The position numbers and the translations under genes were made by a program. DNA of 64,000 bases, from assembly GCF_022846255.1 (NCBI RefSeq), contig NZ_AP025682.1; one strand, 5' to 3'. This DNA comes from Escherichia coli (GTDB lineage: Bacteria > Pseudomonadota > Gammaproteobacteria > Enterobacterales > Enterobacteriaceae). The stretch's first letter is position 1. Every line of letters starts with the position of its first letter. The notes under the pieces are model-generated. The model was not told where the DNA came from. It was given only the letters and a program-made list of their open reading frames with translations, and ran no database searches. Below, piece after piece: positions 18,221 to 62,327 of the stretch.

Positions 18221-20080
18221 ATGAGCAAAGGAACGACCAGCCAGGATGCCCCGTTCGGGACATTATTGGGCTACGCCCCAGGTGGGGTAGCAATCTACTC
18301 TTCAGATTACAGTTCTCTCGATCCGCAGGAATACGAAGATGACGCCGTATTCCGTAGCTATATCGACGATGAATATATGGGCCACAAATGGCAATGCGTT
18401 GAATTTGCTCGCCGTTTTCTCTTTCTGAACTACGGTGTAGTCTTCACTGACGTGGGTATGGCATGGGAGATTTTCTCACTGCGCTTCCTGCGTGAAGTGG
18501 TCAATGACAACATCCTGCCATTGCAGGCATTTCCTAACGGTTCGCCGCGTGCACCGGTAGCGGGGGCGCTTCTTATCTGGGATAAAGGCGGTGAATTTAA
18601 AGACACTGGCCATGTCGCCATCATTACCCAATTGCATGGCAACAAAGTCCGTATTGCGGAACAGAACGTGATTCATACCCCGTTGCCGCAAGGGCAACAG
18701 TGGACACGCGAGCTGGAGATGGTGGTCGAAAACGGCGGCTATATCCTGAAAGACACCTTCGATGACACCACTATTCTGGGCTGGATGATCCAGACGGAAG
18801 ATACCGAATACAGCTTGCCACAGCCGGAAATTGCAGGCGAACTGCTGAAAATCAGCGGGGCGCGTCTGGAAAACAAAGGCCAGTTTGACGGTAAATGGCT
18901 GGATGAAAAAGATCCGCTGCAAAACGCCTATGTACAGGCCAACGGTCAGGTGATCAATCAGGATCCGTATCATTACTACACCATTACCGAGAGCGCCGAG
19001 CAGGAGCTGATTAAAGCCACCAACGAGCTGCACCTGATGTATCTTCACGCCACCGACAAGGTGCTGAAAGATGACAACCTGCTGGCGTTGTTCGACATTC
19101 CGAAAATCCTCTGGCCACGTTTGCGTCTCTCCTGGCAGCGTCGCCGTCACCATATGATCACCGGTCGTATGGATTTCTGCATGGATGAACGTGGCCTGAA
19201 AGTCTACGAATACAACGCCGATTCTGCCTCCTGTCATACCGAAGCGGGCTTGATCCTCGAACGTTGGGCGGAGCAGGGCTATAAAGGCAACGGCTTCAAT
19301 CCTGCGGAAGGGCTGATTAACGAACTGGCTGGTGCCTGGAAACACAGTCGCGCGCGTCCGTTTGTCCATATCATGCAGGACAAAGATATTGAAGAGAACT
19401 ATCACGCTCAGTTTATGGAGCAGGCGCTGCAACAGGCGGGCTTTGAAACGCGTATCTTGCGCGGGCTAGATGAACTGGGCTGGGATGCTGCCGGGCAACT
19501 GATTGATGGGGAAGGGCGACTGGTTAACTGTGTGTGGAAAACCTGGGCGTGGGAAACCGCGTTTGATCAGATTCGTGAAGTTAGCGACCGTGAGTTTGCT
19601 GCGGTGCCGATCCGTACCGGTCATCCGCAAAATGAAGTGCGTCTTATCGACGTATTGCTGCGCCCGGAAGTGCTGGTCTTTGAGCCGCTGTGGACGGTGA
19701 TCCCCGGCAACAAAGCGATTCTGCCGATCCTCTGGTCGCTGTTCCCGCACCATCGTTACCTGCTGGATACCGATTTCACTGTTAATGATGAACTGGTGAA
19801 AACCGGCTACGCGGTGAAACCAATTGCCGGTCGCTGTGGTAGCAATATCGACCTCGTCAGCCATCATGAAGAGGTGCTCGATCAGACTAGCGGTAAATTT
19901 GCCGAGCAGAAAAACATCTATCAGCAACTGTGGTGTTTGCCGAAAGTGGACGGTAAATACATTCAGGTATGTACTTTCACCGTTGGCGGCAACTACGGTG
20001 GGACGTGTTTGCGCGGTGATGAATCACTGGTCATCAAAAAAGAGAGTGATATTGAACCGTTAATTGTGGTGAAAGAGTAA
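18221..20080 (+). CDS. gss: Bifunctional glutathionylspermidine synthetase/amidase, 619 aa
   Basis: MSKGTTSQDAPFGTLLGYAPGGV N-terminus; N-terminal CHAP amidase and C-terminal ATP-grasp-like region. Confidence 0.93.
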   Translation: MSKGTTSQDAPFGTLLGYAPGGVAIYSSDYSSLDPQEYEDDAVFRSYIDDEYMGHKWQCVEFARRFLFLNYGVVFTDVGMAWEIFSLRFLREVVNDNILPLQAFPNGSPRAPVAGALLIWDKGGEFKDTGHVAIITQLHGNKVRIAEQNVIHTPLPQGQQWTRELEMVVENGGYILKDTFDDTTILGWMIQTEDTEYSLPQPEIAGELLKISGARLENKGQFDGKWLDEKDPLQNAYVQANGQVINQDPYHYYTITESAEQELIKATNELHLMYLHATDKVLKDDNLLALFDIPKILWPRLRLSWQRRRHHMITGRMDFCMDERGLKVYEYNADSASCHTEAGLILERWAEQGYKGNGFNPAEGLINELAGAWKHSRARPFVHIMQDKDIEENYHAQFMEQALQQAGFETRILRGLDELGWDAAGQLIDGEGRLVNCVWKTWAWETAFDQIREVSDREFAAVPIRTGHPQNEVRLIDVLLRPEVLVFEPLWTVIPGNKAILPILWSLFPHHRYLLDTDFTVNDELVKTGYAVKPIAGRCGSNIDLVSHHEEVLDQTSGKFAEQKNIYQQLWCLPKVDGKYIQVCTFTVGGNYGGTCLRGDESLVIKKESDIEPLIVVKE

Positions 20081-20095
20081 TACATGTTGTAGCAA

Positions 20096-20130
20096 CCCCG
20101 TACTGATTATGAAGAATAATCAGTACGGGG
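20096..20130. terminator. Strong hairpin terminator after gss
   Basis: 15-bp perfect stem ccccgtactgattat / ataatcagtacgggg, 5-nt loop. Confidence 0.65.
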
Positions 20131-20371
20131 ATTAATCAAAATATTCAATATTTATATATTTCAATATTTATTCATTTCATATATGAATATATTAACAAGT
20201 GAAATACCTGTGTTTTGATTATTTCTAAAGGTTTTGAATGAAGGCTTATTGTCTGATACACAAGAAATAACACGCTTTTTATCGTTAAAAAATGATATTT
20301 CACTTTGCCCACGCCGTGAAAGTCACTGATAATGCCTCCGTTCGTAAATTCAAAATGGCGTAATCTAATAT

Positions 20372-21919: not shown

Positions 21920-22612
21920 CTAGTGATAACCACGCGCGGTCATAAAATCCGTAATCGCTTTTTCTGCATCAACCAGCACCTTTTCCAGTGGCTGATTGGC
22001 GTCGATATCAACCAGTTGTGCACCACCAAAGGTTAACTGTGGCGTTATGGCAATCTTCCTCGCCAGCGATTCCCGTTTATGGTCGGGTTTACGCGCGCAG
22101 GCAACTTCAAGGTCAACATTGAGTTTGATGACCAGATCGGGCTTGTGGCTCGCCATCCAGTGAAATGCTTTACGTTCCTGACTTGCCAGCCATGAGACAA
22201 AACGACCACCTTCAACGTTAGGCGGAAACACCGTACCATCATAAGCGCCAGGAATCTGGTCCTGCGGATAACGGTCGGTTAAAACAATTAACCCGCGACG
22301 ACGACAGGCAAGCATATGACGAAAGCGCAGTAAGCGACGGGCGACAAACGCTGTAATTACCAGCGCCGGAACTGGTCCAGGCAATTTTTTTGCTGTTTTT
22401 ACCTGATTTCGTTCAATTGTTTTATGTAAGGATTTTCCCATCAACGGTAATTTTGTCACTGCACGACCGACATTTCCGGCCTGTTTTCCTAAATGAACTC
22501 TTTCGGCAGCACCATATTTTTCGACAACGGTAATAAGATGTTCACACACCGTTGACTTGCCTGAACCATCGCTACCAATAACGGCAATTAATGGAGGTAT
22601 TATTGACTGCAT
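21920..22612 (-). CDS. yghT: P-loop NTPase of unknown function (paralogue of yghS/yghR), 230 aa
   Basis: Walker [10 protein letters not shown]; shared TDRYPQ and ARKPDH motifs with yghS and yghR. Confidence 0.85.
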
Positions 22613-22786
22613 GAATATATCCTTAAATTTAAATATCCATCCAAAATATTTATTTGGTTAATATGTTTTTGATGAAAGCGTAATTCAGGTCAATGTCACA
22701 ATTAACCATTGTCACAATAAGGTTGAACGGATATTCTGAGCACGGACCACGTAATATTCAATACATTATTTGCTGCCGGGTTTTTC

Positions 22787-23500
22787 GTGAATCAACGTAA
22801 TATGTCAATAATTAATTCCACGCCAGTGCGTGTTATTGCCATTGTAGGATGTGATGGTTCAGGTAAATCGACCCTCACGGCAAGCCTGGTAAATGAACTG
22901 GCAGCAACAATGCCAACAGAACACATTTATCTCGGGCAATCGTCCGGGCGAATTGGCGAATGGATTTCACAGCTCCCTGTTATTGGCGCACCTTTTGGGC
23001 GTTATCTGCGAAGTAAAGCGGCACATGTGCACGAAAAGCCCTCCACACCACCTGGCAATATTACTGCGCTGGTTATCTATCTGCTTTCCTGCTGGCGGGC
23101 GTACAAGTTTCGCAAAATGTTGTGTAAAAGCCAGCAAGGCTATCTGCTCATCACCGACCGCTACCCGCAGGTTGAAGTGCCGGGTTTTCGCTTTGATGGC
23201 CCGCAATTGGCAAAAACCACGGGCGGTAACGGTTGGATAAAAATGTTAAGGCAGCGCGAGCTGAAGCTGTACCAATGGATGGAGTCTTATTTGCCCGTAT
23301 TGTTGATTCGTCTTGGCATTGATGAACAAACCGCGTTTGCGCGTAAACCTGACCACCAACTGGCGGCGTTACAGGAAAAAATCGCCGTTACGCCGCAACT
23401 GACATTTAATGGCGCAAAGATCCTTGAACTGGATGGTCGGCAACCCGCCGATGAAATTCTGCAAGCGTCACTACGCGCAATTCACGCCGCGCTTTCCTGA
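22787..23500 (+). CDS. yghS: P-loop NTPase of unknown function, 237 aa
   Basis: GTG start; Walker A GCDGSGKST; TDRYPQ and ARKPDH motifs. Confidence 0.85.
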   Translation: MNQRNMSIINSTPVRVIAIVGCDGSGKSTLTASLVNELAATMPTEHIYLGQSSGRIGEWISQLPVIGAPFGRYLRSKAAHVHEKPSTPPGNITALVIYLLSCWRAYKFRKMLCKSQQGYLLITDRYPQVEVPGFRFDGPQLAKTTGGNGWIKMLRQRELKLYQWMESYLPVLLIRLGIDEQTAFARKPDHQLAALQEKIAVTPQLTFNGAKILELDGRQPADEILQASLRAIHAALS

Positions 23501-23531
23501 TCACCAAAATGGATAGGGGATGATTTAACGA

Positions 23532-24290
23532 ATGGACGCACTACAAACACAAACTGTTAATAGTACAACCGCGCCGCAGCCCAACTACATTCCGGGGCTG
23601 ATTGCGGTGGTCGGGTGTGATGGCACCGGTAAATCCACACTGACCACCGACCTGGTGAAATCGCTGCAACAACACTGGCAAACCGAGCGGCGCTATCTGG
23701 GGCTGCTCTCGGGCGAAGACGGCGACAAAATCAAACGATTGCCGTTGGTTGGCGTCTGGCTCGAACGGCGACTGGCGGCCAAATCCTCGAAAACCCAAAG
23801 CATGAAAACCAAATCTCCAGCGCTATGGGCGGCGGTGATTATGTACTGCTTCTCGCTGCGAAGAATGGCGAATCTACGCAAGGTTCAGCGACTGGCGCAA
23901 AGTGGCGTTCTGGTGGTCAGCGATCGCTTCCCGCAGGCTGAAATTTCGGGCTTTTATTATGACGGACCGGGGATCGGCGTCGAACGTGCGACCGGGAAAA
24001 TCAGCATGTTTCTGGCGCAGCGCGAACGGCGTTTATACCAACAAATGGCGCAACACCGTCCTGAATTAATCATTCGTTTGGGGATTGATATTGATACTGC
24101 CATCTCCCGCAAGCCTGACCATGACTATGCCGAGCTGCAGGACAAAATCGGCGTCATGTCGACGATTGGCTATAACGGCACAAAAATTCTTGAGATTGAT
24201 TCCAGAGCGCCCTACAGCGAAGTGCTGGAACAGGCACAGAAGGCGGTTTCTCTGGTTGCCATCGTTTCTGACCGCCGAAGTTTAACTTAA
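23532..24290 (+). CDS. yghR: P-loop NTPase of unknown function, 252 aa
   Basis: Walker A GCDGTGKST; SDRFPQ and SRKPDH motifs. Confidence 0.85.
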   Translation: MDALQTQTVNSTTAPQPNYIPGLIAVVGCDGTGKSTLTTDLVKSLQQHWQTERRYLGLLSGEDGDKIKRLPLVGVWLERRLAAKSSKTQSMKTKSPALWAAVIMYCFSLRRMANLRKVQRLAQSGVLVVSDRFPQAEISGFYYDGPGIGVERATGKISMFLAQRERRLYQQMAQHRPELIIRLGIDIDTAISRKPDHDYAELQDKIGVMSTIGYNGTKILEIDSRAPYSEVLEQAQKAVSLVAIVSDRRSLT

Positions 24291-24335
24291 GGCTGGCGGG
24301 ATACTTTTTACTATCAACGATAAGGTCAGGCTGAA

Positions 24336-25685
24336 TTGGCGGGTTTTAACATCAAACATTGGTTTGCAGATGGCGCGTTTCGCACCATTATTCGCAATAG
24401 CGCCTGGTTAGGCTCCAGTAATGTCGTGAGCGCTTTGCTGGGTCTGTTGGCGCTCTCGTGTGCCGGTAAAGGGATGACGCCCGCCATGTTTGGCGTACTG
24501 GTGATTGTACAATCGTACGCCAAGTCGATCAGCGATTTTATTAAGTTTCAGACATGGCAGCTGGTGGTTCAGTACGGAACACCAGCATTAACCAACAATA
24601 ATCCGCAGCAATTTCGCAATGTCGTCTCATTTTCCTTCTCGCTGGATATCGTCAGCGGCGCGGTGGCGATTGTCGGCGGCATTGCCTTACTCCCTTTTCT
24701 TTCCCATTCATTAGGTCTGGATGACCAAAGCTTTTGGCTGGCAGCGCTGTATTGCACGCTCATTCCTTCAATGGCTTCCTCCACGCCGACCGGCATTCTG
24801 CGTGCGGTAGATCGCTTCGATCTAATTGCTGTACAGCAAGCGACGAAACCTTTTCTGCGCGCAGCGGGGAGCGTCGTTGCCTGGTATTTTGACTTTGGTT
24901 TTGCGGGTTTTGTTATTGCCTGGTACGCCTCGAATCTTGTTGGCGGCACCATGTACTGGTGGTTTGCCGCACGTGAATTACGCCGCAGAAATATCCATAA
25001 CGCGTTCAAATTGAATCTGTTTGAGTCTGCCCGACACATCAAAGGCGCGTGGAGTTTTGTCTGGTCAACCAACATTGCCCATTCCATCTGGTCGGCGCGT
25101 AATTCGTGCAGCACAGTGTTGGTGGGGATCGTGTTAGGACCCGCTGCCGCCGGGTTATTTAAAATCGCCATGACATTCTTCGACGCCGCCGGAACGCCAG
25201 CGGGTTTACTGGGCAAAAGTTTTTACCCAGAGGTGATGCGTTTAGATCCGCGTACCACCAGACCGTGGTTGTTAGGCGTGAAGTCAGGTTTACTGGCGGG
25301 CGGAATCGGTATTCTGGTGGCGCTCGCGGTGTTGATTGTCGGCAAGCCGCTCATTTCGCTGGTGTTTGGCGTTAAGTATCTCGAAGCGTATGACCTGATT
25401 CAGGTGATGCTGGGCGCAATTGTGATCTCGATGCTGGGCTTCCCTCAGGAGTCATTGCTATTGATGGCGGGAAAACAGCGCGCTTTTCTCGTGGCGCAAA
25501 CCATCGCCTCAATCGGCTACATCGTATTGCTGTTCATGTTCTGTCATCTGTTTGGCGTGCTGGGAGCAGCGTTTGCTTATTTCGGCGGTCAATGTCTGGA
25601 TGTGGTGCTTTCGCTAATTCCGACCTTAAAGGCATTTTTTCAGCGCCATTCCTTGCTTTATAACGCAGCCGGAGAGAAATCCTGA
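24336..25685 (+). CDS. yghQ: Polytopic membrane protein, putative MOP-superfamily lipid/polysaccharide flippase; start uncertain (TTG 24336 or ATG 24474/24486)
   Basis: Long hydrophobic ORF with about 10-12 predicted TM segments; stop overlaps next gene start (ATGA). Confidence 0.7.
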   Translation: MAGFNIKHWFADGAFRTIIRNSAWLGSSNVVSALLGLLALSCAGKGMTPAMFGVLVIVQSYAKSISDFIKFQTWQLVVQYGTPALTNNNPQQFRNVVSFSFSLDIVSGAVAIVGGIALLPFLSHSLGLDDQSFWLAALYCTLIPSMASSTPTGILRAVDRFDLIAVQQATKPFLRAAGSVVAWYFDFGFAGFVIAWYASNLVGGTMYWWFAARELRRRNIHNAFKLNLFESARHIKGAWSFVWSTNIAHSIWSARNSCSTVLVGIVLGPAAAGLFKIAMTFFDAAGTPAGLLGKSFYPEVMRLDPRTTRPWLLGVKSGLLAGGIGILVALAVLIVGKPLISLVFGVKYLEAYDLIQVMLGAIVISMLGFPQESLLLMAGKQRAFLVAQTIASIGYIVLLFMFCHLFGVLGAAFAYFGGQCLDVVLSLIPTLKAFFQRHSLLYNAAGEKS

Positions 25686-26521
25686 TGATGAGAAAATATT
25701 TCCCGCTAGAGGCGAGCGAGCGTCTATTTGTTGCGATTGAAGAAGATGATGTCGTTGATGCACAGGTCAGTTTGCCGCCGACTATCGCACTAAGTTGTAC
25801 CACCGAAATCATCCATGATAATTACGCGTTATGCCTGCAATTCTGGCTCAATGGCGTCAATCGCCAGGAGTTACTGCGTTTAATATGCAAACAGGCCAAA
25901 GGCGATGAGCTGACTGCTGATGAGCGCAAACAATTTAAATACATGCGAGCGCGCTACAAGCACCTGCGTTTTGCGCAACGGCTGTATTTAAAGAAGCATC
26001 AGGCCGGATTTTTATTCGGCAAAACGACCGTTTTTTTGGGGCGTTTTCAGGATGGCTTTCGTAACGGTAAGAAAAATATTGTGTCGTTTTACAGTAACCT
26101 GTTACGTGTTTATTTGAGCTCCCCTGTCTGGTGGCTGGTGAACTATTCATTGCGCCATAGCCAGTTAGAAACCGTGAACGGTTTTATCGCCTACCGCCAG
26201 AAGCAAATGTACATCCTGAAAGAGATTATTGCTAAACCGCAACTAACTGGCAGGGAATTTCATGATGTGCGAAAAATCATCAGCCAGCAGGTTTCTTATT
26301 ACGACACCTTAAGATCGCTTGATCCTGAAAATAAAGAGGCGTTACTGATTTCCCGTTTTCTCGCCGCCATTAATGGTCTGATGGGGGATAAGCACGACGA
26401 CATGGTGGCGGATGATATGGAGAACCGCCGGTCATATGATGCACCGGTGGCGCTGGATAGCGATATTCGCCAGCGTTTAGAACTGCTTATTTCGCGTTTC
26501 CCACTCTATCCGGAGCAATAA
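25685..26521 (+). CDS. Hypothetical cytoplasmic protein, 278 aa, no family recognised
   Basis: ORF with GGAGAGA RBS 8 nt upstream; translationally coupled to yghQ and the next ORF. Confidence 0.65.
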   Translation: MMRKYFPLEASERLFVAIEEDDVVDAQVSLPPTIALSCTTEIIHDNYALCLQFWLNGVNRQELLRLICKQAKGDELTADERKQFKYMRARYKHLRFAQRLYLKKHQAGFLFGKTTVFLGRFQDGFRNGKKNIVSFYSNLLRVYLSSPVWWLVNYSLRHSQLETVNGFIAYRQKQMYILKEIIAKPQLTGREFHDVRKIISQQVSYYDTLRSLDPENKEALLISRFLAAINGLMGDKHDDMVADDMENRRSYDAPVALDSDIRQRLELLISRFPLYPEQ

Positions 26522-27081
26522 TGCCATCTCGTTGGATTTTCGCTCTGATCATCGCACTCTTAGCGCCAGGCGCGGCGGCACACAATTTCGTCACTGGCAA
26601 AACGGTTACCCCTGTTTATATCCAGGAAGGCGGCGAGCTGCTTCTGAATAGCGACGACGAAATTCACTACCAAAAGTGGAACAGCACACAATTGACGGGA
26701 AAAGTTCGCATTATTCAGTACATCGCCGGGCGTAAGTCGGCGAAGAAAAAGAACTCACTGTTAATTAAAGCGGTTGAAGCGGCAAACTTTCCGCAGGATC
26801 GTTTTCAGCCCACCACCATTGTGAACACTGATGATGCCATCTTTGGTACCGGCTATTTTGTCGTTGGCAAAATCGAAAAAAATAAACGCCGCTATCCGTG
26901 GGCGCAATTCGTTATTGACGGCAATGGACAGGGACGCGTTGCCTGGCACTTGCAGGAGCAGAGTTCAACCATTCTGGTGCTGAATAAAACCGGGCAAATT
27001 CAGTGGGCAAAGGACGGCAGCCTGACGCCGGAAGAGGTAGATCATGTCATTGCGCTGGCGCAGAAGCTGATCAATGAATAA
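26521..27081 (+). CDS. Hypothetical exported protein with N-terminal signal peptide, 186 aa
   Basis: N-terminus MPSRWIFALIIALLAPGAAAHNF resembles a Sec signal; ATG overlaps preceding stop (TAATG). Confidence 0.65.
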   Translation: MPSRWIFALIIALLAPGAAAHNFVTGKTVTPVYIQEGGELLLNSDDEIHYQKWNSTQLTGKVRIIQYIAGRKSAKKKNSLLIKAVEAANFPQDRFQPTTIVNTDDAIFGTGYFVVGKIEKNKRRYPWAQFVIDGNGQGRVAWHLQEQSSTILVLNKTGQIQWAKDGSLTPEEVDHVIALAQKLINE

Positions 27082-27110
27082 AAATTCAAAGGATTGAGGG
27101 CGTTAGTGAG

Positions 27111-28181
27111 ATGAAGCTGGTTGAACACTACATCATGCGTGGTACGCGCCGTCTGGTGCTGATTATCGTCGGTTTTCTGATCTTTATTTTCGCCAGCTAC
27201 TCCGCACAGCGTTATCTGACCGAAGCGGCAAATGGGACATTAGCTCTTGATGTTGTGCTGGATATCGTTTTCTACAAAGTGCTGATTGCACTGGAGATGT
27301 TGTTACCTGTTGGACTGTATGTGTCAGTTGGCGTGACGCTAGGGCAGATGTATACCGACTCGGAAATTACCGCTATCTCTGCGGCGGGGGGCAGTCCGGG
27401 ACGCTTGTACAAAGCCGTTCTTTATCTGGCGATACCGCTAAGTATTTTTGTCACCCTTCTGTCGATGTATGGTCGTCCGTGGGCTTATGCGCAGATTTAT
27501 CAACTGGAGCAACAGTCACAGTCGGAGCTGGATGTTCGCCAGTTGCGGGCAAAGAAATTTAACACTAACGATAACGGACGAATGATCCTTTCGCAGACGG
27601 TTGATCAGGATAATAATCGCCTGACTGACGCGCTGATTTATACTTCTACTGCTAATCGAACCCGCATTTTCCGCGCCCGTTCGGTTGATGTGGTTGACCC
27701 ATCACCTGAGAAACCGACCGTTATGTTGCATAACGGGACCGCCTATCTTCTCGATCATCAGGGGCGTGACGACAACGAACAGATCTACCGTAATCTGCAA
27801 TTACATCTGAATCCGCTGGATCAAAGCCCTAACGTCAAACGCAAAGCAAAATCGGTCACGGAGCTGGCGCGCTCCGCCTTTCCTGCCGATCATGCCGAAC
27901 TGCAATGGCGACAAAGCCGTGGCCTGACAGCATTGTTGATGGCGCTGCTGGCCATTTCATTAAGTCGGGTAAAACCGCGGCAAGGGCGATTTTCAACGTT
28001 ATTGCCACTGACGTTGCTGTTTGTTGCCATTTTTTATGGCGGCGACGTCTGCCGTACGCTGGTGGCTAACGGCGCGATTCCCCTCATTCCTGGTTTGTGG
28101 TTAGTACCCGGACTCATGCTAATGGGCCTGCTGATGTTGGTCGCACGCGACTTCTCTTTGCTGCAGAAATTTTCCCGATGA
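27111..28181 (+). CDS. LptF/LptG-family (YjgP/YjgQ) permease-like membrane protein, 356 aa
   Basis: 3 TM + about 150-aa hydrophilic domain + 3 TM topology read from translation; N-terminus resembles LptF. Confidence 0.7.
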   Translation: MKLVEHYIMRGTRRLVLIIVGFLIFIFASYSAQRYLTEAANGTLALDVVLDIVFYKVLIALEMLLPVGLYVSVGVTLGQMYTDSEITAISAAGGSPGRLYKAVLYLAIPLSIFVTLLSMYGRPWAYAQIYQLEQQSQSELDVRQLRAKKFNTNDNGRMILSQTVDQDNNRLTDALIYTSTANRTRIFRARSVDVVDPSPEKPTVMLHNGTAYLLDHQGRDDNEQIYRNLQLHLNPLDQSPNVKRKAKSVTELARSAFPADHAELQWRQSRGLTALLMALLAISLSRVKPRQGRFSTLLPLTLLFVAIFYGGDVCRTLVANGAIPLIPGLWLVPGLMLMGLLMLVARDFSLLQKFSR

Positions 28182-29257
28182 ATGTTTTCAGTCGCTATTT
28201 AATCCGTCATCTCTTTCTCGGTTTTGCCGCCGCCGCAGGGCTATTGCTGCCGCTTTTTACCACCTTCAACCTGATTAACGAACTGGATGATGTCAGCCCG
28301 GGTGGTTATCGCTGGACTCAGGCGGTGCTGGTGGTGCTGATGACCTTACCGCGCACACTGGTCGAACTTTCGCCGTTTATCGCCTTATTGGGAGGGATTG
28401 TCGGCCTGGGGCAGTTATCGAAAAACAGTGAGCTTACCGCCATTCGCAGCACGGGGTTTTCTATCTTCCGTATTGCACTGGTGGCGCTGGTTGCCGGGAT
28501 ATTGTGGACTGTTTCATTAGGCGCGATAGATGAGTGGGTGGCGTCGCCATTGCAGCAACAGGCGCTGCAAATCAAATCGACTGCCACCGCGTTGGGGGAG
28601 GACAATGACATTATCGGCAATATGCTTTGGGCCAGGCGCGGTAATGAATTTGTGACGGTGAAATCGCTGAACGAGCAGGGCCAGCCGGTGGGCGTGGAGA
28701 TTTTTCATTACCGCGACGATCTCTCGCTCGAATCCTACATTTATGCGCGCAGTGCCACCATTGAAGACGATAAAACGTGGATCCTGCATGGTGTGAATTA
28801 TAAAAAATGGTTGAATGGCAAAGAAACGCTGGAAACATTAGATAATCTTGCCTGGCAATCGGCCTTCACCAGTATGAATCTTGAAGAGTTATCGATGCCG
28901 GGGAATACTTTTTCTGTCCGTCAGCTTAATCATTACATCCATTATTTGCAGGATACCGGGCAACCCAGCAGCGAATACCACCTTGCACTGTGGGAAAAAC
29001 TGGGGCAACCGATCTTGACTCTGGCGATGATTTTGCTGGCTGTGCCGTTTACCTTTAGTGTCCCGCGCTCGCCAGGGATGGGTAGCCGTCTCGCTGTAGG
29101 CGTCATCGTTGGTTTACTCACCTGGATCAGCTATCAAATCATGGTCAATCTGGGATTGCTATTTGCGTTGAGCGCACCTGTTACCGCGCTCGGTTTACCG
29201 GTAGCGTTTGTGCTGGTGGCGTTGAGCCTGGTGTATTGGTATGACAGACAACATTAA
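28178..29257 (+). CDS. LptF/LptG-family (YjgP/YjgQ) permease-like membrane protein, 359 aa
   Basis: ORF-track 386 aa trimmed to MNVFSRYLIRHLF; ATG overlaps upstream stop (ATGA); same 3+3 TM topology. Confidence 0.7.
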   Translation: MNVFSRYLIRHLFLGFAAAAGLLLPLFTTFNLINELDDVSPGGYRWTQAVLVVLMTLPRTLVELSPFIALLGGIVGLGQLSKNSELTAIRSTGFSIFRIALVALVAGILWTVSLGAIDEWVASPLQQQALQIKSTATALGEDNDIIGNMLWARRGNEFVTVKSLNEQGQPVGVEIFHYRDDLSLESYIYARSATIEDDKTWILHGVNYKKWLNGKETLETLDNLAWQSAFTSMNLEELSMPGNTFSVRQLNHYIHYLQDTGQPSSEYHLALWEKLGQPILTLAMILLAVPFTFSVPRSPGMGSRLAVGVIVGLLTWISYQIMVNLGLLFALSAPVTALGLPVAFVLVALSLVYWYDRQH

Positions 29258-29291: not shown

Positions 29292-30464
29292 TTACTGCTT
29301 CTGAGTAGCAAATGCCTGAATGATGGCATCGATTTGCTCACGACTGTGGGCAGCGTTTACGCTACAGCGCAGCAGCGTGATGCCAGCAGGCGCGGCAGGT
29401 GGCAGGATAAGATTCACATAAACGCCCAGCGAAATAAGCTCGCGCCAGATGCGTAAACCTTCCTCTTTCGAACCGATTATTACTGGCACTACCGGGCTAA
29501 TATGTGAACTTAACTCGTAACCCAGTTTTTGCAGACCGTCATACAGATGGTTGGCGTTATCCATCAGCTTTTGCCGCAGCTCTGGTTGTGAGGCAATGGT
29601 TCTTAACGACGAGCGCACGGTCGCAATGCAGGACGGAGAAGGAGAGGCGGTAAAAATATACGGGCGGCTGCCGTAGCGCAGCACTTCCATCGCTTCCGAA
29701 CCGACAGCAAAACCGCCAATCGAGGCCAGACTTTTACTGAAGGTGCCGACGATAATATCCACGTCGTCTTCAACGCCAACGGCTTCAACCAGTCCGCGCC
29801 CCGTAGCGCCTAACACGCCAAACGAATGTGCTTCATCGACAATCAAATAACCACCGAGACGACGTTTGATATCAACAATTTCTGCCAGCGGCGCAACGTC
29901 ACCGAGCATACTGTAGATGCCTTCAACGATAATAATCGCCTCTTTCGCCCGTTCACCGAGGCGGACCATGCGCCGTTCCAGATCGTTGACGTCATTATGG
30001 CGGAAACGAATAATCTCCGCGCCGCCGAGAGAACAGGCGTCATAAATACTGGCGTGGCTGTCGGCATCCAGTAACACCACGGCGTTATGGTCGGCAAGTG
30101 CGCTGATGACACCTAAATTAGCGGTATAACCGGTTGAAAAAACGATAGCGGTAGGGCGATTGAAAAACTCGGCAATCTCTTTCTCTAACGCCAGATGCGG
30201 CGCATAACTGCCGTTTGCCATACGAGAACCGGTGGTGCCGGTGCCTTGGGCCGCTAACGCTGCCTGACCTTCGCGGATAGCATCATGATTAAAGGTTAAA
30301 CCGAGATAATTATTGGTCCCGGCCAGAATCACTTTTTTATTGCCGATCCGGCCTTCGGTGGCGGAATATACTTCATCAATACAGGTGCCAAATGGTGTTA
30401 ACCCGTTGTCACTAAATTGCAGGCGCTCGCCAGCAAGGCGCGCATATTTATCGTATAGCCCCAT
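29292..30464 (-). CDS. PLP-dependent alpha-oxoamine synthase family acyltransferase (serine palmitoyltransferase / 8-amino-7-oxononanoate synthase-like), 390 aa
   Basis: PLP-lysine motif GTFSKSLAS and DEAHSFG; class-II aminotransferase fold inferred from translation. Confidence 0.8.
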   Translation of the reverse strand: MGLYDKYARLAGERLQFSDNGLTPFGTCIDEVYSATEGRIGNKKVILAGTNNYLGLTFNHDAIREGQAALAAQGTGTTGSRMANGSYAPHLALEKEIAEFFNRPTAIVFSTGYTANLGVISALADHNAVVLLDADSHASIYDACSLGGAEIIRFRHNDVNDLERRMVRLGERAKEAIIIVEGIYSMLGDVAPLAEIVDIKRRLGGYLIVDEAHSFGVLGATGRGLVEAVGVEDDVDIIVGTFSKSLASIGGFAVGSEAMEVLRYGSRPYIFTASPSPSCIATVRSSLRTIASQPELRQKLMDNANHLYDGLQKLGYELSSHISPVVPVIIGSKEEGLRIWRELISLGVYVNLILPPAAPAGITLLRCSVNAAHSREQIDAIIQAFATQKQ

Positions 30465-30712
30465 TATTTATTCTCCAGCCATGGAAGTAGAGTTTCCATT
30501 AATTGCGCAGGGGTTTTGACATCCAGCAGAATATTAATAGGAATGGAAATATCGAATCTGTCTTCCAGCATCATTAAGAGATCCATCACTTTGATCGACT
30601 CCAGGCCAAGATCGTTGACGAGATCGCTGTCGGGCTTAATTTCCACACCGTTTTCGACCAAATCCTGTAAACAGGAAAGGATGTAATCCATTACTATTTC
30701 ACGATTTACCAT
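30464..30712 (-). CDS. Acyl carrier protein, 82 aa
   Basis: Phosphopantetheine-attachment motif DLGLESIKVMDL; small acidic protein; stop overlaps next start. Confidence 0.8.
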   Translation of the reverse strand: MVNREIVMDYILSCLQDLVENGVEIKPDSDLVNDLGLESIKVMDLLMMLEDRFDISIPINILLDVKTPAQLMETLLPWLENK

Positions 30713-30743
30713 AGAAACGTTAACACACCTTTAAACAAGACAA

Positions 30744-31658
30744 TCAAAATAGCCCGTTGCGTAATGCGTGTTCCAGGCTAATCCCGGGAAACCAATTAAT
30801 ATCTTCAGAAATACGGTTATTACTTGCCGACCAGTCGGCATGAGTTAATTCACGGATTTTCGAACGAGTCAGCATCGGTTCTTTACCCGCCAGACGGCTC
30901 AACGCGGTACTGATATCCGCAAGGCAGGTGAGTAGCGGCAGAGGAATACCGACCATCCGCACGGAACCACAGCGGACATCGGCAACAAGCTGTTGGACAC
31001 GTTGCCAGTCATAGCCTCCGGCGACGCCATCGCATAATTCATAGGTTTGCGTCTGTACAGTTTCGGCGCTTAACCACTGACCCACTGCTTGCGCAAAATC
31101 GGTGACGTGAAGAAAAGAGAGCAGTGTCTCTGGCGTGCCAAGTCGTGGCAGCAGACCGCGCAGCATCCAGTCAAACAGCGGTTTTAACTCTTTATCGCCG
31201 GGACCATACACGGCTGTCGGGCGAAAAACGCCCAACGTAATTTCGTCAGCCATTGCAGTCAGCCGTTGTTCGGCGACGTGTTTGGAATTTGCGTACCAGG
31301 AGAGTTCGGGATGGCGCGCCGCCAGCGAAGAGATAAACAGAAAACGTTGGCAAAAGCCGCTCTCTTTTGCCGCTTGCATCAGGCGCAGGCTGCCGTCAAC
31401 GTTGCAGCGGGTAAAAATCTCTTCTTTGTGCCCGCGCACTTGCCCGGCGCAATGGACCACCGCGCTGGCTCCGGCAACCAGTTCGCTAAGCGAATGTGTA
31501 TCTTCCAGCGAACCGCGCACCCAAGTGAGATTATCATTGACGTGAGCGCGGGCAGTACGCGTCAATGCGCGAACGTGAAAGCCGCGGGCGAGCAGGTTAT
31601 CAATAATATATTTACCGATAAACCCGGTAGCGCCCGTCACCGCGACAGTTTGATTCAT
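30744..31658 (-). CDS. NAD(P)-dependent epimerase/dehydratase-family reductase (extended SDR), 304 aa
   Basis: ORF-track 374 aa trimmed to MNQTVAVTGATGFIGKY (Rossmann GxxGxxG); ATG overlaps upstream stop (ATGA). Confidence 0.78.
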   Translation of the reverse strand: MNQTVAVTGATGFIGKYIIDNLLARGFHVRALTRTARAHVNDNLTWVRGSLEDTHSLSELVAGASAVVHCAGQVRGHKEEIFTRCNVDGSLRLMQAAKESGFCQRFLFISSLAARHPELSWYANSKHVAEQRLTAMADEITLGVFRPTAVYGPGDKELKPLFDWMLRGLLPRLGTPETLLSFLHVTDFAQAVGQWLSAETVQTQTYELCDGVAGGYDWQRVQQLVADVRCGSVRMVGIPLPLLTCLADISTALSRLAGKEPMLTRSKIRELTHADWSASNNRISEDINWFPGISLEHALRNGLF

Positions 31659-33379
31659 GCCAGGGATTCCTGCACATGAAGACTGGCAGCATAAGCCTTC
31701 TGATAACGTTTTTTCGCTTCCGCACGGGCAGGCTTGCCGGAGGATGTTCGGGGAATACTGTGGGGCGGCAACAGATCGATATCCGCGGTAACGCCAAATT
31801 CGCTTTGGATCCGAGCTGCCAGCGCGTGGATAAGCTGCCCGCGACGTTCTTCGTCGCTGATCCGACACTGGATCTGCAAAATGATTTTTTCCTGGGCGGT
31901 AACAAAAGCAATCGCATCGCCAGAATGAATTTCCGGCTCCTGTTCCGCAATGTATTCAATATCCTGCGGCCAGATATTACGGCCACGAATAATAATCAGA
32001 TCTTTAATGCGTCCGGTGACATACAGATAACCGTCCAGCAGATAACCAAGGTCTCCGGTGTCTAACCAGCCCGTCGCGGCAATCTCGTCTTGCGAAACCT
32101 GGTCGCCAAAGTACCCGCTCATCAGGCTGGGGCCGGAGATGCAAATATGGCCTACCACACGTTCCGCGACAGGTATATCTGCTTCATTGCGGATTTCAAT
32201 GCCATGTTCCGGCAACGCTTTACCGCAGTTGACGAAAGTCGATACGGCGCGTGTTTCAGCACCCGGCGCGACGGCTTTACCCTGGTATTCGAGGATGTCG
32301 CGATCCACTTCGTTAACCACAACCCCGCAGGCTTCATCAGAGAAGCTGACAGCCAGCGCATTTTCTGCCAGTCCGTAGCACGGCATGAAAGTTTTATCGT
32401 CAAAGTTAACCTGACGGAAACATTCAGCGAATTGATGGAGTTGTTCTGCGGATATGGGTTCTGCGCCAATACCAGCGACGCGCCAGCAGGAAAGATCCAG
32501 TTCAGCGAGATCTTTTTCATTCACGCGGCGCTGGCACAATTCATAGCCAAACGGCGGTGCAACGGAAACGGTGCCACGATTTTTACTGATCAATTTAAGC
32601 CATTGCAGAGGACGCATGGCAAAATCCTGAGTGCGCAAATAATCTACTGAAAGCTGCGTGGCGACGGGGGTCAGGAGAAAGCCGACCAGTCCCATATCAT
32701 GGTAGAAAGGCAGCCAGGAGACGCAGCGGTCGCCAGGGCGTAATTTAATCCCATCGTGGCTTATAGCACGTAGATTAGCCATCACTTCGTGATGGGTGAT
32801 AATGACGCCACGGGGAAAACGGGTGCTGCCGGAGGTGTACTGGAGGTAGGCGATATCGTTTGGAACTGGACGCTGGAGCACAACATCGGCTTCCGGTAAT
32901 GCCTTAAACCAGGCGTGGCTTAAAACATGTAATTCGGGGTTGTTGTTATGCGTCGCGGCATTGACCAGTGGCAACCACTCATCACCAGTGATAATGGCTG
33001 CGGGCTGGCAACTTGCCAGTAAACCCTGCAGTTTGGCGCTCCAGGAATCCCGCTGACCTACGCCCATTGGAATCGCCAACGGGACGGCGACTAAGCCGGC
33101 ATACTGGCAGGCAAAAAAAGCCTCTACAAACCCGCTACTCGTTTCGGCAATCAGCGCCACGCGATCGCCTTTTTTCAGGTTCAGCGATAACAACCTTTTC
33201 GCACCAGCTTCGGCACGCGCTTTTAACGTCTGATATTCCAGTTGATCTTCAAGTTGGCAACGTCTGTCATAAAAATTCATTCCGGCGCTACTCAGAGCGG
33301 CGTAGTCCAAAGCATCAACCAGCGTTGGAAAATCGGCATAGCGCATAGGTAGGGAATGCGTAAAGATTTTATTAGACAT
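31655..33379 (-). CDS. Fatty-acyl-AMP ligase / acyl-ACP synthetase-like adenylating enzyme, about 574 aa
   Basis: AMP-binding motifs YTSGSTRFPRG and GRIKDLIIIRGRNIWPQDIE; start set at ATG 33379 (alternative TTG 33406). Confidence 0.8.
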   Translation of the reverse strand: MSNKIFTHSLPMRYADFPTLVDALDYAALSSAGMNFYDRRCQLEDQLEYQTLKARAEAGAKRLLSLNLKKGDRVALIAETSSGFVEAFFACQYAGLVAVPLAIPMGVGQRDSWSAKLQGLLASCQPAAIITGDEWLPLVNAATHNNNPELHVLSHAWFKALPEADVVLQRPVPNDIAYLQYTSGSTRFPRGVIITHHEVMANLRAISHDGIKLRPGDRCVSWLPFYHDMGLVGFLLTPVATQLSVDYLRTQDFAMRPLQWLKLISKNRGTVSVAPPFGYELCQRRVNEKDLAELDLSCWRVAGIGAEPISAEQLHQFAECFRQVNFDDKTFMPCYGLAENALAVSFSDEACGVVVNEVDRDILEYQGKAVAPGAETRAVSTFVNCGKALPEHGIEIRNEADIPVAERVVGHICISGPSLMSGYFGDQVSQDEIAATGWLDTGDLGYLLDGYLYVTGRIKDLIIIRGRNIWPQDIEYIAEQEPEIHSGDAIAFVTAQEKIILQIQCRISDEERRGQLIHALAARIQSEFGVTADIDLLPPHSIPRTSSGKPARAEAKKRYQKAYAASLHVQESLA

Positions 33380-33749
33380 ATACACCACGAAAAAATTGGA
33401 TATCAAAAATAAAATGACAATAATGCGGTGGATTATATAGGCATAAAAGATAAATGAGATAGTATTTTCATCGGTGTGAAAATGAACATTGATTTAAATA
33501 ATAAGTTTGGCTTTTTTGTTTTTATTGTGAATGATATTTAATTTGTGAATATATTAAGAAGGAGCCTTGTCCGGTCGCCTTAAATCGACAAGAGGCATTG
33601 TGGCGCTTCTGTGTAGTCTTTGACCTTATCGTAATCATTAATAAATACTATTTATTCTTTGTTTGTATTCATTGGGTTGATTATTAAGATGCCGTTCGTT
33701 GCTGTTGCAACCTGTTTTTCACCGTTAATTATTTGTTATCCACAGAGAT

Positions 33750-34892
33750 ATGGAATGCGATCTGCTGATGATTAAAATTGAAAAAGTAATTAATAAAAAA
33801 GACCTTAAGGCATTTATCGCTTTTCCGTCATCACTTTATCCCGATGATCCAAACTGGATACCCCCTTTATTCATTGAACGTAGCGAGCATTTGTCTGCGA
33901 AGAATCCGGGGACGGACCATATCATCTGGCAGGCGTGGGTGGCAAAAAAAGCGGGGCAGATAGTTGGGCGTATTACCGCGCAAATAGATACCTTGCACCG
34001 TGAGCGTTACGGTGAAGATACCGGTCATTTCGGAATGATTGATGCCATTGATGATCCGCAGGTTTTTGCCGCGTTGTTTGGCGCAGCGGAGGCGTGGTTG
34101 AAGTCACAAGGTGCAAGTAAGATCAGCGGGCCTTTCAGCCTGAATATCAATCAGGAAAGCGGATTACTGATTGAAGGTTTTGACACACCTCCCTGTGCGA
34201 TGATGCCACACGGCAAACCGTGGTATGCCGCGCATATTGAACAACTGGGTTATCACAAAGGCATTGATTTACTGGCGTGGTGGATGCAGCGAACCGATCT
34301 CACTTTCTCTCCGGCGCTAAAAAAACTGATGGATCAGGTGCGCAAAAAAGTGACCATTCGCTGCATCAATCGCCAGCGGTTTGCCGAAGAGATGCAGATC
34401 CTGCGTGAGATTTTCAATTCTGGCTGGCAGCACAACTGGGGATTTGTGCCGTTTACCGAACATGAATTCGCGACCATGGGCGATCAACTTAAATATCTGG
34501 TGCCGGACGATATGATCTACATCGCTGAGATTGATTCTGCACCCTGCGCGTTTATTGTTGGCTTGCCGAACATCAACGAGGCGATTACCGATCTGAACGG
34601 ATCGCTCTTTCCCTTCGGCTGGGCAAAATTGCTGTGGCGTTTGAAAGTCAGCGGTGTGCGAACTGCGCGAGTGCCGCTGATGGGCGTGCGGGACGAGTAT
34701 CAGTTCAGCCGCATCGGCCCGGTGATTGCGCTGTTATTGATTGAAGCCTTACGCGATCCGTTTGCCCGCCGGAAGATCGATGCGCTGGAAATGTCATGGA
34801 TCCTCGAAACCAATACAGGCATGAATAACATGCTGGAACGCATTGGGGCGGAGCCGTACAAGCGTTACCGATTGTATGAAAAGCAGATTTGA
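33750..34892 (+). CDS. yghO: Uncharacterised protein, possible N-acyltransferase; start uncertain (ATG 33750 or 33768), 380 aa
   Basis: ORF divergent from the lipid operon and convergent with glcC; symbol assigned by position relative to glcC from memory. Confidence 0.6.
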   Translation: MECDLLMIKIEKVINKKDLKAFIAFPSSLYPDDPNWIPPLFIERSEHLSAKNPGTDHIIWQAWVAKKAGQIVGRITAQIDTLHRERYGEDTGHFGMIDAIDDPQVFAALFGAAEAWLKSQGASKISGPFSLNINQESGLLIEGFDTPPCAMMPHGKPWYAAHIEQLGYHKGIDLLAWWMQRTDLTFSPALKKLMDQVRKKVTIRCINRQRFAEEMQILREIFNSGWQHNWGFVPFTEHEFATMGDQLKYLVPDDMIYIAEIDSAPCAFIVGLPNINEAITDLNGSLFPFGWAKLLWRLKVSGVRTARVPLMGVRDEYQFSRIGPVIALLLIEALRDPFARRKIDALEMSWILETNTGMNNMLERIGAEPYKRYRLYEKQI

Positions 34893-34898
34893 TGGCAG

Positions 34899-35663
34899 TC
34901 ACCCCTGCTTCATCTCCAGCGGCACCGCCGAGCGAATCAAATGGTGGCCTTCCAGCTCGATATCGTGGAGATTCTTTTTCACGGTCCGCACATGATCGCG
35001 TGCTGCGCGCTGGGCAACGTGCGGCAGCCGCTGCAACACCGCGTTGTAGATCCGCGCATGCTGGCGATCGATCTGCTTTTTTTGCTGTGGTCGATGGTAG
35101 AGATTATTTACGCTGGCAAACACCGAATTAAACATCAGGTCGGTCAATGATTGCAGCGTAAACACCAGCACCTGATTGTGAGAAGCCTGACAAATGGCGA
35201 GATGGAAAGCGTGATCCAACTGCGCATGTTCGATCAGCGAAATCTCTTTGTTGTTCTCACTGACGGCGAGCATTTTTTCATAACAGCGGGTTATCACAAC
35301 AAAATCAGCCTGGGTTCCCAGCGTTGCCGCCAGCCTTGCCGATTCGCCCTCCAGTAATGCGCGAACGTCGAGCAGATCGTACAACGTTCGCGGCTGCGTA
35401 CTGAACAGATGGATCAGCGGGCTGGTGTCCTGCACCCGATTAAGCCGTGCGACACGAGAATCGCGACCCTGCGCCGTTTCAATAATCCCGCGCCCGCGCA
35501 GCACGGTCAGCCCTTCACGCAGTGCGGAGCGTGAGAAGCCGAGCTTTTCACACAGTCGACGTTCCGAGGGAAGCGGCTGACCGACCTTCAGTACGCCGTC
35601 GATAATTAACCGTTCGATACTTTCTGCAACCACTTCGCAAATAGGGCGACGTTCATCTTTCAT
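34899..35663 (-). CDS. glcC: GntR/FadR-family transcriptional activator of the glycolate operon, 254 aa
   Basis: ORF-track 274 aa trimmed to MKDERRPICEVV; N-terminal winged HTH; divergent from glcD. Confidence 0.92.
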   Translation of the reverse strand: MKDERRPICEVVAESIERLIIDGVLKVGQPLPSERRLCEKLGFSRSALREGLTVLRGRGIIETAQGRDSRVARLNRVQDTSPLIHLFSTQPRTLYDLLDVRALLEGESARLAATLGTQADFVVITRCYEKMLAVSENNKEISLIEHAQLDHAFHLAICQASHNQVLVFTLQSLTDLMFNSVFASVNNLYHRPQQKKQIDRQHARIYNAVLQRLPHVAQRAARDHVRTVKKNLHDIELEGHHLIRSAVPLEMKQG

Positions 35664-60753: not shown

Positions 60754-61290
60754 ATGTTACGCGATAAATTTATTCACTATTTTCAGCAATGGCGTGAACG
60801 CCAGTTAAGCCGTGGCGAACACTGGCTAGCACAGCACCTGGCGGGGCGTTCGCCGCGTGAAAAAGGCATGTTACTGGCAGCGGTGGTGTTCCTGTTTAGC
60901 GTCGGATATTACGTCCTCATCTGGCAGCCGTTGAGCGAACGGATAGAACAACAGGAGACGATGTTGCAACAGCTGGTGGCGATGAACGCGCGACTGAAGA
61001 GCGCCGCGCCGGATATAATTGCAGCGCGAAAATCCGCCACGACAACGCCAGCACAGGTATCGCGGGTCATCAGTGACAGCGCTTCCGCGCACTCAGTGGT
61101 CATCAAGCGGATAGCCGAGCGCGGGGAGAATATTCAGGTCTGGATAGATCCGGTGGTGTTTAATGACCTGCTGAACTGGTTAAACGCGCTGGATGAAAAG
61201 TATGCGCTGCGGGTGACACAAATTGATGTCAGCGCAGGTGAGAAGCCTGGGATGGTGAATGTGCAGCGGCTGGAGTTTGGACGGGGGTAG
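60754..61290 (+). CDS. gspM: Type II secretion inner-membrane protein M, 178 aa
   Basis: Small bitopic protein following gspL; also known as yghD. Confidence 0.85.
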   Translation: MLRDKFIHYFQQWRERQLSRGEHWLAQHLAGRSPREKGMLLAAVVFLFSVGYYVLIWQPLSERIEQQETMLQQLVAMNARLKSAAPDIIAARKSATTTPAQVSRVISDSASAHSVVIKRIAERGENIQVWIDPVVFNDLLNWLNALDEKYALRVTQIDVSAGEKPGMVNVQRLEFGRG

Positions 61291-62060: not shown

Positions 62061-62076
62061 AATTTCTTGCGAAATT
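62061..62076. repeat. Palindrome AATTTC-N4-GAAATT, copy 1, in kpsM leader
   Basis: aatttcttgcgaaatt read directly. Confidence 0.8.
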
Positions 62077-62176
62077 AGCGGCCCATTTTGAATAAGTGTG
62101 TTCCGGAGTAATCCAGAACGCATGCTGCTTTACGTCTTTTTCAAGCCATATTGGTTAAGCAAAAAGAGGTAGAAAT

Positions 62177-62192
62177 AATTTCCTGAGAAATT
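62177..62192. repeat. Palindrome AATTTC-N4-GAAATT, copy 2, in kpsM leader
   Basis: aatttcctgagaaatt read directly; preceded by gaaat as in copy 3. Confidence 0.8.
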
Positions 62193-62311: not shown

Positions 62312-62327
62312 AATTTCTGATGAAATT
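62312..62327. repeat. Palindrome AATTTC-N4-GAAATT, copy 3, in kpsM leader
   Basis: aatttctgatgaaatt read directly. Confidence 0.8.

Follow-up and report, generated by a model that had tools for sequence, protein, structure and literature searches.

In textbooks, Escherichia coli stands as the model of a sphingolipid-free bacterium, yet a 64 000 nt stretch of E. coli DNA (contig NZ_AP025682.1 of RefSeq assembly GCF_022846255.1; hereafter the window) contains a full set of genes for dihydroceramide synthesis arranged around a single AT-rich gap between aasR and yghO. This locus raises the question of where, and by what means, expression of such a pathway would be controlled. Our answer, which as a whole model we hold to be reasonably probable, is that both arms of the dihydroceramide (sphingolipid) cluster of E. 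coli are driven from this gap, a bidirectional promoter region. Judging from alignments, only its aasR-proximal third behaves as constrained regulatory DNA, whilst the remainder drifts at or above the synonymous rate.

The gap and the genes that it serves

Gene calls were taken from the RefSeq annotation of a genome with identical sequence over the query. On this annotation, the gap runs from the ATG of aasR (fatty acyl-AMP ligase; 33379–33377, minus strand) to the annotated ATG of yghO (33750, plus strand), such that the 370 bp AT-rich region that the original prediction had placed between a lipid operon and yghO coincides exactly with the space between the two genes. Some RefSeq records place the ligase start 33 nt further in, which leaves this boundary slightly soft. 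The region and its two arms are as follows.

29292–33379, minus strand: aasR-epi-acpR-spt operon, encoding an acyl-acyl carrier protein (ACP) synthetase, a reductase, a dedicated ACP and a serine palmitoyltransferase (SPT)
33380–33749, no strand: whole aasR/yghO intergenic region, 370 bp, 31.1 % GC
33750–34892, plus strand: yghO (aca; homologue of the bacterial ceramide synthase gene), alternative start at 33768

The four operon genes are tightly packed in the annotation, with 4 nt and 1 nt overlaps and one 31 nt intergenic gap, and their Pfam domains (AMP-binding, Epimerase, PP-binding and Aminotran_1_2) fit the pathway roles; the epi product is annotated as a reductase of the NAD-dependent epimerase/dehydratase family. 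In strain BL21(DE3) the same genes have been named aasR (ECD_02851), epi (02852), acpR (02853) and spt (02854) by Padilla-Gomez et al. (PMC9386255), who equated yghO/ECD_02850 with Caulobacter aca (CC_1154), a putative N-acyltransferase gene. According to that work, the five genes together form the structural set for dihydroceramide synthesis and are clustered only in Caulobacter and E. coli, and biochemical work with the BL21 proteins showed that E. coli AasR, AcpR and SPT catalyse the same reactions as in Caulobacter (PMC9386255). Pfam domains, RefSeq names and this assignment of ECD_02850–02854 thus place the complete set (aasR, acpR, spt, epi and aca) around the gap. The BL21 locus is collinear with the window, and its gap is 96 % identical, with differences at 19 of 465 positions. 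YghO (380 aa, 33750–34889) had no Pfam-A match at E ≤ 0.001, although the literature treats it as an acyl-CoA N-acyltransferase and GNAT candidate.

The strong AT-richness and the A/T tracts that had been noted for this region were borne out by its composition. The GC content of 31.1 %, compared with 51.6 % for the window (AT content 69 versus 48 %), is matched by only 0.65 % of all 370 bp windows across the stretch, and the gap contains 17 A/T-only runs of at least six bases, the longest being 13 nt. The density of A/T-only hexamers is 15.4 per 100 bp, a 7-fold enrichment over the window-wide 2.17, whilst TpA steps are doubled (9.5 versus 4.3 %). This places the gap at the low-GC end for intergenic DNA without making it unique: a GC fraction of ≤ 0.315 was found in 4 of the 19 intergenic regions of at least 60 bp in the window (gss/pitB, yghT/yghS, aasR/yghO and glcA/sslE). 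Amongst the eight divergent gaps of the window it is the longest. The AT-rich tract (GC < 40 %) is limited to about 33303–33892, ending ∼80–140 bp inside the flanking genes, which have a normal GC content of 50–54 % (52.0 % for the operon, 49.8 % for yghO). Internally, two AT-rich arms of 28 and 31 % GC flank a centre of 46 % GC at 33556–33640. As a sequence feature, the gap is an ordinary kind of AT-rich divergent promoter region.

The proposal of a divergent control region likewise held. Both arms point outward with no other gene upstream, and because gene orientation leaves no other source of transcription, both promoters must sit in or next to the gap. In a synteny scan with one genome per species, relatives of yghO were found in 45 loci, 43 of which had enough flanking sequence to be informative; in 42 of these, spread over the Enterobacterales and Pseudomonas and over more than 12 genera, yghO stands head-to-head with aasR-epi-acpR-spt. 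The genera include Escherichia, Shimwellia, Citrobacter, Pseudocitrobacter, Pluralibacter, Serratia, Erwinia, Pantoea, Tatumella, Rosenbergiella, Cedecea, Hafnia, Sodalis, Klebsiella (Klebsiella indica) and Pseudomonas/Stutzerimonas. The lone exception is a second yghO paralogue in Shimwellia pseudoproteus (L030:8001-9137, 73 % identity), which has no aasR-spt operon beside it. Gap length amongst the loci ranged from 270 to 1095 bp, and in every locus the GC content was below that of the flanks, by 6 to 27 points. An arrangement kept over such a distance, combined with a shared pathway, provides good indirect evidence of functional coupling. As such, a control region shared by both arms appears well supported by gene order, and co-regulation of the two arms, for which shared pathway and synteny form the basis, is plausible. 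A shared constrained operator for both arms is not evident, as only the aasR-proximal third is conserved and the yghO side varies at about the synonymous rate. The scan also returned a 430 bp contig of a Macrococcus sp. assembly (L046) with a fragment 99 % identical to E. coli YghO, which is almost certainly contamination.

Within E. coli, at least 80 % of a 751 bp query, made up of the gap plus the ends of aasR and yghO next to it, was held by 4108 of 5426 complete genomes, so that the ceramide pathway locus is present in about three quarters of them. In K-12-type genomes, both operon and gap were lost via an IS5-associated deletion that clipped yghO as well; in one such strain, HT-948 (L050:1952-2967), IS5 lies between truncated yghQ and yghO in place of the sphingolipid operon, the lptF/lptG-like genes and the gap. 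This loss explains why the locus was overlooked, and it also means that published K-12 chromatin immunoprecipitation (ChIP) and regulatory data cannot cover the gap. Part of what this analysis adds is the identification of the genes under its control as the E. coli ceramide cluster missing from K-12; the uneven constraint along the gap, described below, is new. A literature search on yghO, the BL21 locus tags, sphingolipids with H-NS, and bcerS/cerR returned no paper on regulation of the E. coli locus, and the sole transcriptome-related mention of ECD_02854 was a figure label. The nearest known relative, the sphingolipid locus of Caulobacter crescentus, has the same five structural genes clustered (spt CC_1162, acpR CC_1163, epi/cerR CC_1164, aasR CC_1165 and aca/bcerS CC_1154; PMC9386255). 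There, however, the N-acyltransferase gene is not an adjacent, divergent neighbour, and the head-to-head yghO/aasR pair with a shared gap is the enterobacterial and pseudomonad layout. The literature that could be searched states nothing on the regulation of either the Caulobacter or the E. coli locus.

Constraint and candidate promoter elements

Conservation was assessed on an alignment of eight Escherichia sequences (the window, three further E. coli and four genomes from cryptic clades); variable columns were counted over five lineages, with the following result.

33380–33479, next to aasR, in 40 bp windows: 2.5–7.5 % variable columns
33380–33505: 8.7 %
33556–33640, GC-richer centre: 57.6 %
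33641–33749, yghO side: 41 %
Third codon positions: 39 % in aasR, 32 % in yghO
glcC/glcD control region, same genomes: 10.4 %

The same gradient was seen across 4145 E. coli genomes, 61 % of which were at least 99 % identical to the window over the left 110 bp. For the central 110 bp, this level was reached by 5 % of genomes, 45 % were at 90–95 % identity and ∼550 genomes fell below detection. The centre occurs once per genome and is therefore not a repeat element. A useful yardstick is the neighbouring glcC/glcD gap, a characterized bidirectional regulatory region that is likewise divergent and serves functionally linked genes. The left block of the aasR/yghO gap is constrained to a similar degree (8.7 versus 10.4 % variable columns); the glcC/glcD gap (250 bp, 43 % GC), however, is constrained over its full length, whereas in the aasR/yghO gap constraint covers no more than one third, and no regulator gene is attached to it. 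Constraint can thus be localized beside aasR, where it accompanies a short list of testable elements, listed below from left to right.

33380–33489, minus strand: conserved aasR-proximal block, 28 % GC; proposed core promoter, 5′ untranslated region (UTR) and any operator of the aasR operon
33383–33386, minus strand: GGTG Shine–Dalgarno-like element within the motif (C/A)TGGTGTAT-ATG
33396–33424, plus strand: alternative promoter-like site TTGGAT-17-AATAAT in the conserved block, putative; yghO leader would be ∼320 nt
33432–33437, minus strand: candidate −10 TATAAT of the aasR promoter, perfect consensus; predicted start near 33425, leader of ∼46 nt
33455–33460, minus strand: weak −35 ATCTCA, 3/6 matches, 17 bp spacer to TATAAT; invariant sequence
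33525–33551, plus strand: two direct TGAAT repeats, TTGTGAATGATAT and TTGTGAATATAT, 18 bp apart
33556–33640, no strand: hypervariable GC-richer centre, 46 % GC
33620–33649, plus strand: top-scoring plus-strand site TTGACC-18-AATACT, promoter-like; leader of ∼94 nt
33663–33690, plus strand: best-conserved candidate yghO promoter TTGTAT-16-TAAGAT, a modest 7/12 consensus match; leader of ∼53 nt
33698–33721, plus strand: small hairpin GTTGCTGTTGCAAC followed by CTGTTTTTCA, terminator-like
33724–33738, plus strand: ArcA-box-like direct repeat GTTAATTATTTGTTA, 12 nt 5′ of the yghO ATG; a lead only

A promoter-element test on both strands yielded conserved sigma-70-type candidates on each, with consensus matches at the level of shuffled sequence. 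Two of its outcomes speak against the model: the consensus scan called three promoter-like sites in the gap where 2.5 were expected from shuffles, and ranking by position weight returned many sites of similar score. As promoter matches were no commoner than in shuffles, they carry no weight as such, and candidates from the position-weight ranking were picked by conservation. On the minus strand, the TATAAT at 33432–33437 ranked second by position weight and is invariant in all eight Escherichia sequences; the stricter consensus scan did not pick it up. The weakness of its −35 suggests that the aasR promoter depends on an activator or on DNA topology. On the plus strand, the only candidate within invariant sequence is TTGGAT-17-AATAAT. 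The −35 of the top-scoring TTGACC-18-AATACT site is strain-specific, being replaced by CTGACC (as in BL21), GTGATC or CTAACC in other lineages. For TTGTAT-16-TAAGAT, by comparison, the first, second and sixth positions of the −10 (T, A and T) and the TT..AT of the −35 are invariant in the eight sequences. Both TGAAT cores are also invariant there, whilst their neighbouring bases vary.

Combining these observations, we infer that aasR-epi-acpR-spt would be driven leftwards from a sigma-70-type promoter formed by TATAAT (33437–33432) and its weak −35. This promoter would lie within a ∼100 bp block (33380–33480) under strong purifying selection, which most likely also holds a short 5′ UTR and the binding site or sites of the operon's regulator. 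In the other direction, yghO would have a weaker promoter, itself under little constraint, in the right-hand AT-rich arm; TTGTAT-16-TAAGAT (33663–33690) is the best-conserved candidate for it, and the GC-richer centre would be an unconstrained spacer. A short H-NS/StpA patch probably coats the gap and holds basal expression low, and induction would need an activator or anti-silencer acting on the conserved block.

Gap structure and gene starts in other genera

In blastn comparisons, the E. coli gap matched those of other genera at the coding edges only. Within the short-gap group, only a −10-like box and a Shine–Dalgarno-proximal motif align with it: a TATAAT-like box stands at a similar distance in Citrobacter amalonaticus, Pseudocitrobacter and Hafnia, and the TGGTGTAT-ATG motif just 5′ of the aasR ATG is common to E. 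coli and these three. The −10 alignment could be a chance alignment of AT-rich DNA, which counts against the promoter model. Most other genera have gaps of 600–800 bp with several conserved blocks, and the E. coli gap is a short, derived form.

One of these is a conserved block of 150–190 nt located just 5′ of yghO in other genera, which ends in the inverted repeat CAATAnA...TnTATTG and a T-run, 30–40 nt before a strong TAAGG Shine–Dalgarno sequence of yghO. An nhmmer profile of the block recovered it in at least seven genera, with matches in Shimwellia, Pluralibacter, Sodalis, Erwinia, Hafnia, Serratia and two metagenome-assembled genomes (MAGs) and E-values from 2e-42 to 1.5e-05 (block loci L006:7830-8024, L008:7843-8024, L039:7853-8024, L034:7844-8021, L010:7786-8011, L017:7869-8023 and L035:7925-8011), and had no match in the E. 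coli window. The block gave no Rfam match and, in RNAalifold, no consensus structure; in a stem drawn by hand, 68.6 % of cells were paired, a value reached by 33 of 500 shuffles, and covariation was not significant. The block could be an RNA attenuator or a protein operator.

The yghO start itself also differs. In most other genera, TAAGG precedes an ATG that corresponds to codon 7 of the E. coli gene (33768) and has stop codons upstream of it, whereas in Escherichia that Shine–Dalgarno sequence has been lost and an in-frame ATG lies 18 nt further up, at 33750, preceded by a weak GAGA only. On the aasR side, most non-Escherichia genera (L006, L008, L010, L011, L033 and others) have ATCTATGGCT(N6)T(G/T)T(A/C)T immediately 5′ of the ATG and a conserved TTTTTACAAAAA ∼75 nt upstream. 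The first of these motifs reads as an in-frame MA(V/E)LY extension in Pseudomonas but is out of frame in Serratia, and it is therefore probably a 5′ UTR element. Unrelated to the gap, a fluoride riboswitch (RF01734, 45.4 bits) was found ∼4 kb downstream of yghO in Pluralibacter gergoviae (L010:13320-13389).

Within E. coli, a search of the gap against Rfam at a permissive threshold gave only a spurious match (E = 0.21), and at the gathering threshold eight related loci contained nothing relevant. Both putative leaders folded no better than shuffles (z = −1.09 for the aasR leader and +0.34 for the yghO leader), and the hairpin at 33698–33721 is removed by a 7 bp deletion in two Escherichia lineages; it is probably not a functional attenuator in E. 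coli. Open reading frames (ORFs) in the gap comprise one of 38 aa on the minus strand in the centre, one of 19 aa on the plus strand (33483–33542) and some of 12–18 aa on the minus strand in the conserved block. None of these is conserved or has a ribosome-binding site, and they were rejected as genes.

Possible silencing, specific regulation and rival explanations

Classic examples of AT-rich E. coli promoter regions repressed by H-NS/StpA include proU, bgl and hlyE, and the original prediction had described the gap as typical of promoters silenced by nucleoid proteins. Composition agrees with this description: AT content, A/T hexamers and TpA steps all stand out against the window to the extent given above. 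H-NS motifs are A/T-only 5–6-mers, and short H-NS patches favour DNA upstream of operons (PMC3064808); in these terms the gap would class as a ‘short’ patch, sharing with the ‘short’ H-NS/StpA-repressed promoter regions its AT-richness, its TpA-richness and its place upstream of operons. The likeness extends to the apparent functional silence of the pathway genes in the laboratory and to a sister region. The latter, the divergent yghT/yghS gap (22612–22785, no strand, 31.0 % GC), is the other AT-rich control region of the same accessory cluster and lies at its far end; in K-12, yghS was H-NS-associated in two ChIP data sets and 3.1-fold up on over-expression of SlyA, an H-NS antagonist (PMC5797941). 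As for the pathway genes, 3-oxo-sphinganine was undetectable in BL21(DE3) that carried empty vectors or received only SPT or only AcpR and AasR, and its production needed AasR, AcpR and SPT all from plasmids (PMC9386255). The lack of a native product means that, at 30 °C in rich medium, there was no functional expression of the chromosomal operon.

Several findings weigh against silencing. The AT-rich tract does not exceed ∼590 bp (33303–33892), which is below the > 1 kb of long tracts that run on into silenced genes, and a foreign base composition is absent. Because of this and the gene GC content of 50–54 %, classic long-tract xenogeneic silencing does not apply, and the gap differs, as far as sequence tells, from the kilobase-long H-NS-coated acquired islands. 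No match with up to two mismatches to TCGATAAATT, the consensus of the high-affinity H-NS nucleation motif, was found in 33380–33749, the nearest lying at 33811–33820. AA/TT steps showed no peak at 10–11 bp, the strongest periodicity being 14.8 bp. Unlike H-NS-repressed regions, the gap therefore has neither a high-affinity nucleation motif nor phased A-tracts. Short H-NS patches have moreover been described as gentler modulators (PMC3064808), and the authors of the BL21 study suspect that the intrinsic epi and yghO products are active (PMC9386255), which, if real, implies some basal expression. The sequence evidence is thus mixed: nucleoid-protein silencing of the gap is plausible, we would rate occupancy by H-NS or StpA at slightly better than an even chance, and strong silencing would rank lower than occupancy.

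Specific regulators were considered by scoring the gap and 500 shuffles against the consensus sequences of 22 regulators and sigma factors. The ArcA-like repeat at 33724–33738 matched at 13 of 15 positions, with five of the 500 shuffles as good; its first GTTA reads ATTA in three lineages. A weak FadR-like match at 33700, equalled by 16 of 500 shuffles, varies between lineages, and a Fur match (12/19) was at chance level. None of the 22, the ArcA-like and FadR-like matches included, survived correction for multiple testing. A regulator site common to both AT-rich cluster gaps was also rejected: TCACAA/TTGTGA is repeated in each, but the spacings differ (16 and 18 bp), the sharing is marginal (p ∼0.055, ∼5.5 % of shuffles) and the second copy in the aasR/yghO gap reads TTATGA in most Escherichia. 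The repeats concerned are two copies of TGTCACAAT 16 bp apart in the yghT/yghS gap and, on the other strand, repeats of TTGTGAAT in the aasR/yghO gap with a spacing of 18 bp.

A simpler account of the gap would dispense with any meaningful role for a nucleoid protein. Both promoters would then be ordinary ones, controlled by one or more specific regulators on the conserved 100 bp block (an envelope-, lipid- or oxygen-responsive factor, for example), and the AT-richness would reflect the usual relaxed non-coding DNA plus promoter elements. That AT-richness of this degree is found in 4 of the 19 gaps, that the cluster has a normal GC content and that neither a nucleation motif nor a curvature signal is present all fit this account. 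An invariant 100 bp block with a weak −35 has the look of an activator-dependent promoter, and the ArcA-like repeat and weak FadR-like match are possible leads. Nevertheless, no regulator consensus survives the 22-test correction, the cluster has no regulator gene except glcC, which belongs to the glycolate system, and the sister yghS promoter region is H-NS-associated in K-12 (PMC5797941). We therefore see this account as possible, but on the unlikely side. A different layout would place both promoters back-to-back in the left block, with TTGGAT-17-AATAAT (33396–33424, plus strand) and ATCTCA-17-TATAAT (33460–33432, minus strand) bringing their −10 boxes to within 8 bp. One module would then control both arms, jointly or by competition, and yghO would have an unconstrained leader of ∼320 bp. 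This would explain why the left block, with promoter-like sites on both its strands, is the only strongly constrained sequence in the gap and why the yghO-proximal two thirds evolve at an approximately neutral rate. Set against it, the plus-strand site scores modestly, it would be unusual for a 320 nt leader to run through a hypervariable segment and a terminator-like hairpin, and the conserved T-A-x-x-x-T at 33685–33690 fits a proximal yghO promoter; we judge the layout improbable.

Control at the RNA level has a still smaller claim. Here, the hairpin and T-run at 33698–33721 would act as a cis-acting attenuator or riboswitch-like element in the yghO leader, and could be a reduced version of the inverted repeat and T-run of other genera. 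A terminator-like hairpin is indeed present, as is the 150–190 nt block with CAATAnA...TnTATTG and a T-run in Shimwellia, Pluralibacter, Sodalis, Erwinia, Hafnia and the two MAGs. Rfam, however, has no match in E. coli or the eight other loci, the E. coli leader is unremarkable against shuffles, the hairpin is deleted in two lineages, the nhmmer profile of the block has no match in the window, and the block itself yields no RNAalifold consensus and a manual stem without covariation support. These results make an RNA element very improbable. A hidden small gene, whether for a short protein or a small RNA, seems marginally less probable again. Mechanical ORFs do exist, but the 38 aa one lies in the hypervariable centre, the 19 aa one is frameshifted or truncated in other lineages, none has a Shine–Dalgarno sequence, the gap has no Rfam match, and RefSeq annotates nothing in it across thousands of genomes.

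For the bidirectional promoter model, the practical consequence is that the functional part of the gap narrows to ∼100 bp beside aasR, a concrete and cheap entry point for experiments. Should commensal or pathogenic E. coli produce ceramide-type lipids under certain conditions only, the decision must fall at this gap. A more far-reaching reading, which we offer tentatively and consider doubtful, is that the near-invariant 33380–33480 would be the operator of a dedicated switch, with a specific activator or anti-silencer encoded elsewhere turning on a ceramide pathway that is otherwise cryptic. On this reading, there would be a defined natural condition in which E. coli makes sphingolipids, possibly life in the host or envelope stress.

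The surroundings of the cluster offer some further observations. Beside the ceramide genes lies an operon (22786–29257) for two P-loop proteins (YghS and YghR), the flippase-like YghQ, a hypothetical protein, a YtfJ-family protein and a second LptF/LptG-like permease pair, which has the look of machinery dedicated to modifying and exporting the lipid product of the pathway. The remaining AT-rich gaps of the window are gss/pitB (20080–20370, 29.6 % GC) and glcA/sslE (44339–44822, 31.4 % GC); the region upstream of sslE, in the sslE/type II secretion system region, is H-NS-regulated. An AT-rich stretch after yghD (61249–62674) holds a pseudogene fragment of an ABC permease. Finally, yghO and glcC are convergent with a 6 bp gap (34892–34899), and glcC-yghO is listed amongst the K-12 convergent pairs with overlapping transcripts in a 2025 paper (PMC12288877).

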